This document shows, one piece after another, positions 15,956 to 47,950 of a stretch of DNA of 64,000 nucleotides. The translations under genes and the position numbers were made by a program. The first letter of the stretch is position 1; every line of letters begins with the position of its first letter. Below the pieces are notes generated by a model. The model was not told the DNA's origin. It ran no database searches and saw nothing but the letters and a program-made list of their open reading frames with translations. Source of the DNA: Mayamaea pseudoterrestris (lineage: Eukaryota); assembly GCA_027923505.1 (NCBI GenBank), contig BROI01000022.1:496001-560000 (forward strand), written 5' to 3'.

Positions 15956-18577
15956 ATGAATCGCAGTCTTGCCATTCTCGCTCGCAAACACAAGGAAGCC
16001 CAAGGCAATGACCTGAACTTTCAGTGCATGGATGACGGTGGTGAATCCGTCGTCTCCTTCGACATCTCCTTGGCGCAGAGTCGACGCAACTTGATGGCGC
16101 AAATCAATCAAGAGCAAGAGCAAGATGAGGAAACTGCAGTCATGGCAATGGCTAGCGCGCATGCTGTGCCAAACAGATCAATCAGTAGTTCCATGTTTCA
16201 GCGGGGCGTGGCGTCGCTGGCCCGCAAGGTTTCCTCGCGCATGAGCAACTTTCGCGACAAAGAGTCTACTAATGAGAGAAATGAACTTGTTTCTGCTGCC
16301 AATGCAGTAGCAGGAACGAGCAGCAATAGTAATAATGTCAATCAGCAAGATGAGCATGATCAAAACAATCAACAGCTAGCGCATCACTTGCATCATGGCG
16401 AACAGACTCATCGCCGACGAGCTAGTGCTGCCGGTGGACTGTCGCCGCCCTCCATCATTTCGGACGAAGTAACCATTGATGACGAGCATGGACACAACCT
16501 TAATGATGATGCAGCAGCAGCCAAGCAGCGGCGGAGTCAGTCCGTGCCAAGCACCATCGCCAAGCGACGAGGACGCCGCAGTCGAAGCGTCACGACCACC
16601 ACGCGCGTGCGTCGGACGGATGTTGACTCGTCGGATCGACGTTTCAGCAGTGGCAGCAAAACGTCGTCGAGTGGGGCCGAGTCGGACTCCAAAACGCAGC
16701 AGCAGCAACGGTCCTCGTCCAAGCTGGTTCGAAGGAGTCACCATGGGCGTGTGCGTGAAAGTAACAGTAGTGCATCGGATCATGAATTTTCGGCGTCAAT
16801 GAGTGATTTGGAGCGGCGACGCAAGGTGATTCAACATGCCGACGACGTTGAGGATGATGACGAAGATGATGAAGCTGAACCAAAGAAAAAGACGCGGCGA
16901 AGAGTCATTGTCAAGGTTCGAAGTACGAGGGTGGATCCGGAGCATCCGGCAACTGAAGGTAACCAAGACAATGAAGAATTGATAAGAGACGCGCTGAAAC
17001 ATCGGAGTCGCAAAATTGATCAACTGTTGCATGCAAAACTTTCTTCAAGCTCTGGGCGGCCGCGTCGCCGCGGAAGCAATGGCGCTCAGAGTTGCGTCGA
17101 ACTGCAATCCACCAGTCGAGAGTCACTCTTGGTAGCAGCAAAGTCGCCGGCTGCTGCATCCAAGAGTCCGTTAAGGGTGAAAATGTCGCCGGGTCGTAAC
17201 CTAGAGTCGCCAACGACATTGCCTTCGGTGAAAGTGTCAAGGATATGCGTGGAAAAGCCAGAGCGGTCGTCATCATCTAACTTGCAGCACGAGGACATTG
17301 ACGCTCCGGTTGGTATTTTGCACCATCGATCATCGCATCATAGTCCTGCCAATGACTCGCTTCGTCGATCCCGAAGCAAGTGTAGGAGCGACAAGGACGC
17401 GGCTCGTAGCTCGAGCGCTCCAAAGGACAAGGAGATGCGCGTCGGTTCGAGACACAAACTGGCGCAGTCTCCAACCATTTCGCCAGCCAGATCCGAGTCT
17501 TCGCGGTCGAGAAAAGGTGATTCACCAAAAGATGTGCATAGCCGCAGGGAACACCGCAAAAGGTCAACCAAGCTAGAGGAGATTAAAAACATAGTTTTGG
17601 ATGTCGAGGATGATATTGATGGAGATCTTGCTTCACCAAAGCCGAGGGACGGCACGCGGAGGAAACATGGGTTGGTTGCTACCCCGCCCTCGCAGAAAAC
17701 TATCGTTCGTGGCATGACAAGATCGACCCATTCACCAAAATCAATGAGTGCAAAGCGAAGCGAACATTCGCCAAAAACCACCAGTATTCCGAGTCGTTCG
17801 AAACACACTTCTGCAACAATACACAAGTCGCCGGACGGTGGCCTCGTCGAGGATTTAAAGAAGGAAATGTCGGAAGCTAATCAGAAAAGTCGCGAACAGC
17901 TGATGAAGTCAAAGCATGAAAAGTCATCACACACTCCTAAAAGTCGGCCACGAAAGGCATTGAATTTGGAGGATAGTTATCCCGCCTCCAAGAATGGGAA
18001 GGAATTGACCGATGAGGTTTCTTTGGCGGAATCTGTCGGAACGGCCACAGGGACACCCAAGTTATTGAGACGAAAACGTGTTTCTGCTAGGAGCCCTGCC
18101 AGTGACAGGGTAGTCCGTTCCGCGTCAAAGTCCAAGGGAAGTCCAAGTGAGAAACGTGTTTATTCTGATGCGCAAAGTAAAGTGCACACAACGCGAAGGC
18201 GTAGTAAAGGTGTCAGCGAACCAGATGCGCCAGAGCTACCCAACCTGCAGAGTAGTAGCACGAAGCTTGGCAGAAGGTCGAACAGAAATAACGATGCACA
18301 CAGATCCCCGCAAGACCATTCAGACGCTTCAGATACCGAATCTACTGATGTAGATTTGCACTCAGGTGATTACGGTTATGGCTCCAAAGTCGACTATGAA
18401 ATGGATGATTATGGTGACGATGACATTATAAAAATGAAGCCGACAGGCAGCAAATCCAAACCTGTCGTCGCGGCACAGCTACAATTGCCGGGTCTGTCTC
18501 CTACAGTATTTGATGGTGACGAAGTGTCGGTACAATACCAAGACGTCGTCGCGTACAGTGATACCAATGCATTTTAA
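15956..18577 (+). CDS. Ser/Arg/Lys-rich low-complexity hypothetical protein (873 aa)
   Basis: Long uninterrupted ORF with disordered-looking composition. Confidence 0.7.
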   Translation: MNRSLAILARKHKEAQGNDLNFQCMDDGGESVVSFDISLAQSRRNLMAQINQEQEQDEETAVMAMASAHAVPNRSISSSMFQRGVASLARKVSSRMSNFRDKESTNERNELVSAANAVAGTSSNSNNVNQQDEHDQNNQQLAHHLHHGEQTHRRRASAAGGLSPPSIISDEVTIDDEHGHNLNDDAAAAKQRRSQSVPSTIAKRRGRRSRSVTTTTRVRRTDVDSSDRRFSSGSKTSSSGAESDSKTQQQQRSSSKLVRRSHHGRVRESNSSASDHEFSASMSDLERRRKVIQHADDVEDDDEDDEAEPKKKTRRRVIVKVRSTRVDPEHPATEGNQDNEELIRDALKHRSRKIDQLLHAKLSSSSGRPRRRGSNGAQSCVELQSTSRESLLVAAKSPAAASKSPLRVKMSPGRNLESPTTLPSVKVSRICVEKPERSSSSNLQHEDIDAPVGILHHRSSHHSPANDSLRRSRSKCRSDKDAARSSSAPKDKEMRVGSRHKLAQSPTISPARSESSRSRKGDSPKDVHSRREHRKRSTKLEEIKNIVLDVEDDIDGDLASPKPRDGTRRKHGLVATPPSQKTIVRGMTRSTHSPKSMSAKRSEHSPKTTSIPSRSKHTSATIHKSPDGGLVEDLKKEMSEANQKSREQLMKSKHEKSSHTPKSRPRKALNLEDSYPASKNGKELTDEVSLAESVGTATGTPKLLRRKRVSARSPASDRVVRSASKSKGSPSEKRVYSDAQSKVHTTRRRSKGVSEPDAPELPNLQSSSTKLGRRSNRNNDAHRSPQDHSDASDTESTDVDLHSGDYGYGSKVDYEMDDYGDDDIIKMKPTGSKSKPVVAAQLQLPGLSPTVFDGDEVSVQYQDVVAYSDTNAF

Positions 18578-44324: not shown

Positions 44325-44899
44325 GATGGTGCTGAATGGGGAAGCCCAGAAAGCACAGCGTGAGAATGAAGCTGCATAACGCGCCACTTAAAAAATACTA
44401 GACGGTGACCATCAACCTCGCTGCTCGATTTAGAGTGCATGACCTTTAAGCATACCTCGTCATGATATTTTCTTGCTGCTGCTTGCTGCTTGCTGTATCA
44501 ATCACGCGTTATCGCCACTACAATAATGCTCGTCTCTCCTTTGTCACTCGTGAAGAGCTGTAACGTTCCGTTGCCGACGAACCGACGAAACTCCGCCGTT
44601 TCGTCGCAGCGACCGGTAGTGCTCCGGCGAAACCGGTGCGAGGTTCGGCAACAAATGATTTGTATGCTAGAATGTGAACTCGGTTAACAGTAAAACAGAT
44701 GATCTTTTCTATGAAATTTGATGCGAAAACAACTTGATCATCATCAAGCATCATGGCGGTCAGCCGGACGCCGTCGAATTTGAATCCAAAACCAGTGCGA
44801 CTACCTCGTCACATAACCGCTGCGCCATCATGACGTTTCAGGCTCGAGTGTCACGTTTTCGCACCACACATCAACTTTCATTCCAATCTATCATCCACC

Positions 44900-47495
44900 A
44901 TGGCGATCCTGCGTCTATTGACAACACTATCGCTTCTATCGAGCAGCCATGCCTTTTATGTCGATACAATAACCCAAAGACATGCTTTGAAGTATGTCAA
45001 GAAAGCTAACGACAGCATCCACGCCTTTCGAATCAATAATATAGCAACTCGACAATTCACCTCCACTATACTCTTTGGCAAAAAGGCTGCCCGCAAGGGC
45101 AGCGGCGGCGGAAAGTCGTCCTACAGTAGCAGCAAACAAGTGCCACAAGAAAAGCAATCGGTCAAGGATCAGCGCTTTGACGCGGCGACGCGACAGTTCA
45201 TGTTCACCATGCTTGGCTTGACCAAGATTTTGCCCGACAAGTCCAAGACGCTGCTCAAAGACATTAATCTGTCGTTCTATCCCGGTGCCAAGATTGGAGT
45301 CGTTGGCTTGAATGGATCAGGTGCGTGATGGAACTGTGGTGCGAAGAGACCTATTTGCTGTTCAGCGTTTAAAACTCACCATAATCTCGCCTCACATACA
45401 GGCAAGAGTACATTGTTGAAAATCATGGCTGGCATTGACACGGAATTCGACGGCACGGCCCGTCCACTACCGGGCGCCAGCATTGGCTACTTGGCGCAGG
45501 AACCAGTCTTGGAGTTTGAAACGGTGCAGGAGTGCGTCGACCAAGCGGTGCAGTCGCAGCAAGCAATATTGGACGAATTCAACTCACTCAGCATGAAACT
45601 GGCTGATCCAAACTTGACGACGGACGAAACGAACAAGATTATGAGTCAAACGGATCTATTGACGAACCAGATTGAGGCTGGCAATCTGTGGGATCTGGAT
45701 CGGGTGGTGGAGCGCGCCATGGACGCGCTCCGCGTGCCGGCCGGTTCGGCCAAGGTTGCCAATCTTTCCGGAGGCGAGCGTCGACGAGTAGCGCTCTGTC
45801 GACTACTGCTGCAGAATCATGACATGCTACTACTTGATGAACCAACGAACCATTTGGATTTTACGTATCTATTGTTGTGATTGGTTGTGTTGTTGGAGTG
45901 TTGTGCAAATGTTGAGAGGAGTGCCGAGCGATCTTGCGTGGCGTATTGTTTGATCGTCGTTCGTTGATTCGTCACAACATTATGCGTGACGTGTACATGA
46001 TTTCCTACTCATGCCTTTCATTGTCTTCTTAATTACAGGGTACGATATTACAAATCCGTCTTCTTTTCATAAAAGCCATGATAGCCCTTGTCTCACTAAT
46101 CTTTCTTTCTCTGCCGCAGCGAGTCCATTGCATGGCTGCAAATCTTTTTACAGAACTTCAAGGGCACTGTTGTTTGCATTACTCACGACCGTTACTTTTT
46201 GGAGGAGGTGGCTCAATGGATATTGGAGCTGGATCGAGGAGCTGGTATTCCGTTCGAAGGCAACTACTCGGCGTGGCTGGAGGCAAAGAATAAGCGTCTA
46301 CAGGAGGAAAAGAAGAAGGAGACTGCGGCTTCAAAAGCCGTTCAAGCTGAGCTGGAGTGGATCCGGAGCAACCCCAAGGCGAGGGGTAACAAGAGCAAGG
46401 CTCGTTTGAATCGCTACGATGACTTGTTGGCGGCGGCTGCACCAAATGAAATGCGAAATGCTGGACAAATATACATTCCGCCAGGCCCAAGATTGGGGAG
46501 TGTCGTCATTGAGGTGGGGAATCTGCGCAAGTCGTTTGGCGAGCGCCTGTTGATTGACGACCTCAGCTTTAGCTTGCCACCCGCTGGCATTGTAGGAGTG
46601 ATTGGCCCGAACGGCGCGTAAGTTGACATGACGAAGGTTTCAGTAGCTGCGCAACAACTGTTTGTTCCCCGTTTTGACTCATTATTTTTTGATGGTGTTG
46701 ATACATTGCAGTGGTAAATCGACGTTGATCAAGATGCTACTCGGCCAAGAGCAACCAGATGAAGGCAAGGTTACGATTGGAGAGACTGTTCGCCTCGTGT
46801 CCGTCGGGCAGGAGCGCATGGAAAGTCTCAACCCGGAAAAGACTGTGTTTGAGGAGATTTCAGACAATCTAGATGAGATTGAACTTGGCACGCAGACTGT
46901 CATGTCTCGAGCATACCTTTCATGGTTTGGTTTCAAGGGCGGCTCGCAGCAATCGCTCGTTGGCAACCTGTCTGGTGGAGAGCGTAATCGAGTACAGCTC
47001 GCCAAGGTTCTCAAGGCTGGTGGCAACGTCATAGTACTAGATGAGCCCAGCAACGACCTAGATGTACGTATATCAAATGCGTTTGAATGGTGATAAGTTT
47101 GTTGAGCTGTAGTGTTTGTGGAAGCTGCTTCATTATGTCATTTAACACCCCTTTCGTTATATTCCACAGGGTACGTTATCTATCTCTGCTAAAAAGGCTA
47201 TATTATAACAGTTACTAAAGTGTCGACTCACACTTTCTTCTTATCGCTCCTTACCACAGTCGAAGTACTGCGCAGTTTGGAGGAGGGCTTGCTGAACTTT
47301 GCCGGATGCGCCTTTGTGGTATCACACGACCGCTTCATGCTGGATCGCATTGCCACACACATTTTGGCGTGCGAAGGAGACAGCAAGTGGTTTTGGTTTC
47401 CCGGCAACTATGCCGAGTACGAGCAGAATCGTTTGGAGCGATTGGGCGAAACAAGCATCAAGAGAATTACGTACGCGCCATTGATAAATGTTTAG
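44900..47495 (+). CDS. ettA: Plastid-targeted ABC-F translation factor EttA/ChvD; exons 44900-45320, 45402-~45860, [46039], 46120-46617, 46712-47063, [47170] and 47260-47495
   Basis: [70 protein letters not shown] and [13 protein letters not shown]. Presequence [19 protein letters not shown]. Confidence 0.95.
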
Positions 47496-47950
47496 GATCT
47501 TTTAAGTAGTTATTATTATTGTTTAACTGTAAGCTTCATTTGCAGCCTTCATGTCGTTCGATTGATGCGCTCGCGCTTGCACCATCAAGGCTTTCCCGAG
47601 CAAGGTAGGCGTGACTCGCATGAAAAGGCCACATGTAGCCGTGAAGCCATGCTTTTGATAAAGTATCCAGTAGGCAAGCGAACACACGACCGGTATTGTT
47701 TGCGTGCATTTGTATTTCAAAGCTTACTCTTTAGCTCGAATGCGAACGTTCTTTTCGCCGCCGTTCACACCAATGAAAACTCTCATTTGACGTCTGGTCA
47801 GACACTTTTCGGTTCTTGTCCTCGTCCCTCGATCGAACACGACACACAAAAATTGTGTCCCAAGTTTTAGCTGTCAACTACCGCACCACATAAATACCAT
47901 AATCACTACACAGATGAAGCTCTTTCCAACACTTTCGCTGATATGCCGCC

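Follow-up and report, generated by a model that had tools for sequence, protein, structure and literature searches.

Probable one-base exons within both D-loop introns of a diatom EttA-family gene

Where does the single G come from that the mRNA of a diatom gene carries at each of two D-loops? The gene lies on the forward (+) strand of a 64,000-nucleotide (nt) stretch of Mayamaea pseudoterrestris DNA (assembly GCA_027923505.1, contig BROI01000022.1, positions 496,001 to 560,000; here called the window, in whose numbering all positions are given), where five blocks of open frame run from an ATG at 44900 to a TAG at 47493-47495. It encodes a protein of the EttA family with two ABC cassettes, and the coding sequence is interrupted just after the D-loop of each. 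Both interruptions hold a candidate G directly between an acceptor AG and a donor GT, as ACAG|G|GTACG, at 46035-46044 and at 47166-47175. A sequence-only reading had proposed that the first G, at 46039 after DEPTNHLD, is a micro-exon matching the site at 47170, and every letter it quoted stands where it was said to stand. We consider it likely that each D-loop 'intron' consists of two short introns, spliced in sequence, with a one-base exon, G, between them.

The gene (44900..47495) is placed by matches to both profiles and a solved structure. Its database protein, P0001 (source name MPSEU_000924000; 100% identical to exon 3 of the window), scores 812.7 bits against TIGR03719 (cut-off 806.75) and 812.5 bits against NF008775 (cut-off 599). 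Judged by its sequence, with full-length matches above the cut-offs of both curated family models, the product is an ABC-F ATPase of the EttA/ChvD subfamily. Residues 98-651 align with residues 8-556 of E. coli EttA (3j5s_D, E 5e-192), and the two ABC cassettes, each with a Walker A, an LSGGE signature, a Walker B and a D-loop, are colinear with solved EttA. Our corrected model, free of internal stops, has seven exons of 421, 459, 1, 498, 352, 1 and 236 nt encoding 655 amino acids.

At the first D-loop, the codons CAT TTG GAT occupy 45851-45859 (GAT at 45857-45859) and are followed by T 45860, after which the intron following DEPTNHLD offers two possible donors, TTACGT at 45861-45866 and GTATCT at 45865-45870. 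Its interior holds ACAG at 46035-46038, G 46039 and GTACGA at 46040-46045; a CCGCAG ends at 46119, and exon 3 reads C GAG TCC from 46120. At the second D-loop, GAT at 47061-47063 is followed by GTACGT at 47064, a CCACAG ending at 47169, G 47170, a further GTACGT from 47171, a CCACAG ending at 47259 and then TC GAA from 47260. Splicing through T|G|C translates as HLDCESIAWL. The donor at 45865 without the G gives HLDFTESIAWL, and with the G it shifts the frame to a stop at residue 352; in cassette 2, the donor at 47064 without G 47170 leads to a frameshift and a stop at about residue 588. All four translations given in the sequence-only reading, HLDCESIAWL and HLDFTESIAWL among them, came out the same when recomputed. 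The reading frame and the conserved protein both require the G bases, and only the one-residue spacing fits 119 homologues and solved EttA.

Transcript evidence came from four public runs, coded X1-X4, whose kind is unrecorded and which comprise at most three samples from one study. They consist of contigs only, which drop rare variants and give neither abundance nor intermediates; these were aligned to 44700-47700, and the joints and differences reported here are those among the records listed. Positions 45912-46113, for example, lack cover in X1-X3, and uncovered parts were not used as evidence. X2 and X4 hold spliced forms, since their contigs bridge two ordinary introns at GT..AG. Intron 1 (45321..45401, 81 nt, GTGCGT..ACAG) falls within a Gly codon of the cassette 1 Walker A and is seen in both runs as a joint from 45317 to 45399 with 81 nt skipped (GT..AG with the cut moved by +3). 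Intron 3 (46618..46711, 94 nt, GTAAGT..TTGCAG) falls at GPNGA|GKS in cassette 2 and is seen in both as a joint from 46617 to 46712 with 94 nt skipped. X1 and X3 hold unspliced pieces only, plus one odd joint in X3.

Across the first D-loop, the 452 letters of X2 record 10 align to 45473-45860 (388 letters) and then, with nothing between, to 64 letters from 46119, reading GATT+GCGAG, that is GATTGCGAG, which translates as HLDCES. Across the second, X4 record 30 (462 letters) lies on 46761-47063 (303 letters) and 47259-47417 (159 letters), and X2 has the same joint; these contigs read GAT+GTCGAA, that is GATGTCGAA, which translates as DLDVEV. The mRNA products are thus those that the sequence-only reading had predicted, and the cassette 1 junction is not GATTTTACCGAG. 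No joint listed in the four runs uses the donors at 45865 or 47068. That reading had also asked whether the letter at 45861 might be a misread G; it is a T in two independent unspliced contigs, X1 record 4 (45729-45907) and X3 record 19 (45696-45864), which differ from the window only at 45805 and 45817, where they carry the variant letters of the spliced contig. The T at 45861 is therefore not an assembly error, and the donor really is TT. No natural variant at 46039 or 47170 was present among the differences listed. A search of a protein collection with the exon 2 and exon 4 peptides, aimed at transcripts of this species, returned no match above 88% identity.

The explanation that we favor divides each interval at its internal AG|G|GT. 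In cassette 2, GAT|GTACGT..CACAG|G|GTACGT..CACAG|TCGAA would comprise two canonical GT-AG introns of 106 and 89 nt. Intron 4a (47064..47169, GTACGTAT..TTTAAC..CCACAG) follows the end of exon 4, which is at 47063 in the spliced contigs of X2 and X4; the proposed exon G at 47170 would be the first base of the Val codon G|TC, completing GTC in an mRNA that reads GAT G TCGAA; and intron 4b (47171..47259) reads GTACGT..GACTCAC..CCACAG. In cassette 1, GATT|TTACGT..TACAG|G|GTACGA..CGCAG|CGAG would comprise two introns, the first TT-AG and 178 nt long, the second GT-AG and 80 nt long. Intron 2a (45861..46038) begins with the non-canonical donor TTACGTAT and would end at the acceptor TTACAG, about 27 nt after a branch-like TACTCAT and behind a pyrimidine-rich tract. 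The proposed exon G at 46039 would stand in the middle of the Cys codon T|G|C, and intron 2b (46040..46119) reads GTACGA..CTCAC..CCGCAG, with exon 3 resuming at 46120 (or at 46119 in the aligner's placement). Since ACAG|G, the internal acceptor, overlaps G|GTACG, the internal donor, the spliceosome could presumably not engage both introns of a pair at once and would have to remove them in succession. Used constitutively, this route would yield a 655-residue protein with the normal spacing HLD-x-ES and DLD-x-E. Such sequential, recursive-like removal, in line with the recursive splicing suggested in the sequence-only reading, would be the natural mechanism for overlapping signals. The two sites which that reading called homologous are near-equivalent, but they differ in codon position, G 46039 being the second base of TGC and G 47170 the first of GTC.

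What recommends one-base exons is how ordinary they make the rest. Three of the four introns become fully canonical and only the TT donor is unusual: introns 2b, 4a and 4b each possess 5' GT, branch site, pyrimidine tract and 3' AG, and 2a differs by its TT start. The occurrence of ACAG|G|GTACG in both intervals is explained. All six proposed donors then share a G at +5 (GTGCGT, TTACGT, GTACGA, GTAAGT and GTACGT twice), a position occupied by C in GTATCT and by A in GTATAT, the donors of the annotation. Read by eye, a CTCAY-type branch motif stands 23-30 nt ahead of five acceptors out of six, among them the internal acceptor of cassette 1; intron 4a has TTTAAC 24 nt before its acceptor. Finally, in length the halves (178, 80, 106 and 89 nt) resemble the gene's confirmed introns (81 and 94 nt) and those of relatives more closely than the undivided intervals of 259 and 196 nt do.

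The pairing itself is very unlikely to be due to chance, as the sequence-only reading had maintained. ACAGGGTACG matches twice in the window against 0.04 expected (64 kb, both strands), and none of 100 shuffles reached two matches; both copies are those of the D-loop introns, and there is no other in the window. A scan of the window for an acceptor followed by 0-7 bases and a donor found no excess at spacing 1. Its other spacing-1 matches, at 1518 and 47971, were dropped as resembling coding sequence by eye, and spacing-2 matches at 17813 and 17939 on the minus strand were dropped as antisense to an 885-residue open frame. The six introns have no mutual similarity beyond their splice signals (local alignment z at most 2.0), and a search for an introner-like origin found no further copy of any of them within the window. 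A search of Rfam for a small nucleolar or other RNA in intron 2a returned no family match at E up to 1 in 45300-47300, and the fold of 45850-46130 is no more stable than those of shuffled sequences (z +1.4), the compound intron being not unusually structured.

Several observations weigh against one-base exons. The mRNA alone does not need them: the G could equally be the last base of each interval, 46119 or 47259, and in cassette 2 it could instead be G 47064, which would make the intron TA..AG. The micro-exon claim of the sequence-only reading accordingly holds for the presence of one G in the mRNA, whereas its origin at 46039 is suggested by the splice signals, the mRNA fitting 46119 as well. 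A U at intron position +1 is chemically disfavoured and would carry a catalytic cost; positions +2, +3 and +5 to +8 of TTACGTAT are, under standard pairing rules, complementary to U1. The cassette 1 joint is seen in one contig of one run, on a variant haplotype. No partly spliced intermediate (exon 2 plus G and then GTACGATATT, or ..TTACAG plus G plus CGAGTCC) appears among the contigs listed. Across the window no other one-base exon candidate was found in an intron-like context, and the looser motif YAGNGTAYG is not enriched (3 matches against 3.3 expected). Two of these three looser matches fall in the D-loop introns, which account for about 450 of the 128,000 positions in the scan; the motif is special to the two D-loop places and not a general habit of the region.

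Other routes to the observed junctions were tried and set aside. No canonical two-step route leads to GATTGCGAG: TTAC (45861-45864) has to be excised along with the rest of the intron, and the end of the exon offers no nearby GT before 45865. The GATTG|GT repeat found at 45879-45885 was rejected, as using it would mean removing 22 nt with GA..GT ends. Introns of the U12 type have the 5' consensus RTATCCTT, which GTATCTAT at 45865 resembles; this reading was rejected, as the spliced contig ends its exon at 45860 and not at 45864. A zero-base ratchet point was rejected because a G separates AG from GT and the mRNA contains one G, and a stwintron because, before any splicing, the sequence already has each of the four donors and four acceptors in intact form.

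The alternative that survives best, which we still think rather unlikely, is that each interval is one non-canonical intron whose internal AG|G|GT goes unused. Such introns would span 45861-46118 (TT..CA) in cassette 1 and 47064-47258 (GT..CA), or equally 47065-47259 (TA..AG), in cassette 2, under a rule common to both, with xTACGTAT as the donor and the cut one base ahead of the usual AG. They yield exactly the observed mRNAs, and the aligner, which placed the G at the last base of each interval, reported both joints in this way: TT..CA in cassette 1, and GT..CA in cassette 2, where two letters fit either side ('both' = 2), so that TA..AG also fits. TACGTAT is common to both 5' ends, and CC(G/A)CA|G to both 3' ends. 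We know of no spliceosomal behaviour, however, in which a perfect YAG acceptor is cut ahead of its A-G. Single introns also leave unexplained the twofold occurrence of ACAGGGTACG where 0.04 is expected, as well as the branch-like motif and pyrimidine tract before the internal AG, and at 258 and 195 nt they would be two to three times as long as the confirmed introns (81 and 94 nt).

A second alternative, which we judge very improbable, is that the database model is the main functional mRNA and the assembled contigs are minor or aberrant. A model with the donors GTATCT (45865..45870) and GTATAT (47068..47073) translates to exactly P0001, 657 amino acids with HLDFTES and DLDVLEV and junctions GATTTTACCGAG and GATGTACTCGAA. 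Both annotated introns are GT-AG and keep the frame, the annotation pipeline used RNA sequencing (RNA-seq) according to the available portion of its description (PMC9724779), and contigs that drop rare variants cannot measure abundance. Against this, neither donor is in any spliced contig listed from the four runs, while the other form was assembled in two of them, and both lack the +5 G found in the other six. The protein is also an outlier. At site 1, the 120 listed homologues have Ala in 94 and Cys in three (P0006, P0064 and P0113), with FT in P0001 only; among the 22 that are off-pattern, those containing the region have one residue there (VQS, ADS, CDS, TAS, AQS) and the rest start downstream or read into an intron. 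At site 2, the residue is Val in 93, Thr in ten and Ser in one, with VL in P0001 only, so that 104 of the 105 with the motif have a single V, T or S; the 15 without it are nearly all truncated before the site. P0001 is the only one of the 120 with two residues at either site, and its alignment to E. coli EttA (3j5s_D) opens one-residue gaps in the latter exactly at both junctions. We conclude that the public protein is wrong at both D-loops, one residue too long at each (FT for C, VL for V), and that the correct length is 655 amino acids. The database model would have avoided the one-base exons by way of nearby, frame-keeping GT donors, at a cost of one residue per site.

The last alternative, that the spliced contigs derive from a diverged allele, strain or retro-copy with ordinary intron ends (a GT at 45861, for example), draws on the seven exon positions at which the cassette 1 spliced contig differs from the window and on the several haplotypes in the runs, including X4 record 27 with 17 differences and nine gap letters, but is likewise very improbable given that X1 record 4 and X3 record 19 are unspliced, carry the same variants at 45805 and 45817 and otherwise match the window, so that the variant haplotype also has TTTTACGTATC, that X4 record 30 has a single difference in the 159 letters after the cassette 2 joint, and that a fully canonical micro-exon route exists in the window's own cassette 2. 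The second haplotype in the runs differs by about 2-4% in exons, mostly at positions 3 nt apart (45123-45295 and 45520-45817), and has an in-frame CAG insertion after 45123; X1 holds both letters at 45805, which fits a heterozygous diploid. The odd joint of X3, in a low-depth contig, skips 172 nt inside exon 1 (44908-45081) with CT..CA ends and a length that is not a multiple of three; X3 alone also has four single-base deletions, and the skip is probably noise of that run.

Is the arrangement shared by related genes? The closest relative, P0006 (90% identical over exon 3), is a 448-residue open frame on a 20-kb contig that runs unbroken from its N-terminus through GLNGSGKST and HLDCES and stops at GPNGA, the position of intron 3. 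Because the frame is unbroken at both places, P0006 appears from its sequence to lack introns 1 and 2, and it has Cys where the codon in the window is split T|G|C. Two metagenomic loci each have one short canonical intron of about 74-80 nt nearby but elsewhere, reading TTG G|GTAAGT..ATAG|AT GCC in L004 and TTG|GTAAGT..ACAG|GAT GCG in L005, and three others (L001-L003) have no intron there. In cassette 2, the open frame of P0241 (86% identical) reads NDLD-GTSS, a peptide that would fit GAT G|GTAC.. and a single intron where 4b lies, and that of P0340 reads NDLD-VRH, which would fit GAT|GT.. where intron 4a starts. The arrangement in the window thus looks like two intron positions, single elsewhere, that have come together one base apart.

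In diatom-like relatives (P0121-P0207 and P0241-P0360), frames break at ten or more points within about 40 nt of the stretch from Walker B to D-loop in cassette 1, and the same pattern is found within ILDEPxNDLD of cassette 2. Intron position is highly plastic here, and both stretches look like hot spots of intron gain or sliding. All relatives whose DNA or open frame was visible either lacked an intron there or had a single short canonical one, nearby but at a different position, and none showed an internal AG-N-GT. The suggestion in the sequence-only reading that the paired exons reflect a conserved, splicing-based control is therefore unsupported, and nothing here shows regulation. Outside the D-loops, introns 1 and 3 occupy near-equivalent places in the Walker A loops of the two cassettes (GSG|K and GA|GK, offset by two bases); intron 3 is common to relatives, P0006 ending there, and intron 1 is not.

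A bolder reading, which we put forward as a doubtful one, combines accurate removal of a U2-type intron that starts with UU by the diatom spliceosome, paired exons arising at an intron-gain hot spot and a TT donor acting as a tunable brake. The UU start would be tolerated because a strong GTACG donor immediately takes over the one-base exon at which the intron ends. At the hot spot between Walker B and D-loop, an intron already present in each cassette would have gained a new neighbour at a distance of one base. Retention of the compound intron, owing to the weakness of its TT donor, would serve as the brake on production of an organelle-type translation factor. In X4, a run that splices the three other intron loci (introns 1, 3 and 4), record 27 (45536-46238) is a contig that runs unspliced through the whole cassette 1 compound intron, and it comes from a diverged haplotype with indels at 45907, 45908, 45976 and 45987; it could be retention, a poorly or allele-specifically spliced haplotype or carry-over of DNA.

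The protein has an N-terminal extension of about 95 residues (window 44900-45200) that is absent from bacterial EttA and begins with a hydrophobic, signal-like stretch ending SSSHA|F, which we take to resemble the plastid-import motif of diatoms. P0006 and P0003 have N-terminal extensions similar to it.

An exon of one base is the smallest that a spliceosome can retain. If the explanation offered here is true, this gene would be the first case outside plants and fungi in the literature that we found, the first gene with a pair of one-base exons, one per ABC cassette, and a link between a one-base exon and a TT-AG intron. A literature search for diatoms together with micro-exons, recursive splicing, stwintrons or non-canonical splicing returned no diatom case among the papers listed, which is weak evidence of novelty. 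Annotation pipelines that admit only GT-AG introns and exons of ordinary size silently 'repair' such genes by adding residues, here in D-loops that are functionally critical, and similar cases are probably hidden in other diatom annotations for that reason. With its varied intron positions in a short stretch, the gene is also a good place to study the origin of neighbouring introns.

How does this gene compare with known systems? Ratchet points and recursive-splicing (RS) exons in Drosophila and vertebrates juxtapose an acceptor and a donor inside an intron that is removed stepwise. In the classical ratchet point no base is left behind and the introns are very long, whereas the diatom gene would keep one base and its introns are short. 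Fungal stwintrons are two spliceosomal introns removed successively, the inner one interrupting a splice signal of the outer; unlike these, both introns of each diatom pair have their own complete signals before splicing. In placozoan mitochondria, cox1 reportedly has a single-base exon between two organellar self-splicing introns, in contrast to the spliceosomal, nuclear setting of diatom EttA.

Closer parallels come from nuclear genes. In APC11 of Arabidopsis thaliana, reporter constructs with a substituted base have proven the existence of a one-base exon (Guo and Liu, 2015; PMC4674806). As described in the available portion of that paper, it too is one base between AG and GT inside an annotated intron, needed for frame, and there too the database model was wrong through its choice of a nearby donor, the flanking introns being accurately spliced. 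It differs in that its exon is an A, one per gene, between two canonical introns; the diatom gene would have two, at near-equivalent sites, with one flanking intron that starts with TT and with an origin of the G that we infer. The one-nucleotide exon of the Fusarium P450 gene CYP621A, which by the paper's own count in its available text is the second nuclear case (Nelson and Syed, 2026; PMC12940212), shares with ours the context CAG|G|GT, a middle position in a codon that belongs to a conserved motif, an interval more than twice the usual intron, and support from an intronless relative and public reads. That exon is single, belongs to a fungus and is conserved in 20 Fusarium orthologues (PMC12940212), whereas the diatom exons are paired and no relative that we examined shares them. 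As for the TT donor, TT-AG introns are rare but have a precedent: human ETV1 has a TT-AG junction that is used constitutively and missed by standard aligners and annotators (Parada et al., 2014; PMC4176328), likewise a spliceosomal intron with a TT start, in another organism and gene and, in the text available, not beside a micro-exon. The diatom EttA gene is thus probably a further nuclear example of one-base exons, new in having a pair of them in one gene and a TT-AG partner intron.

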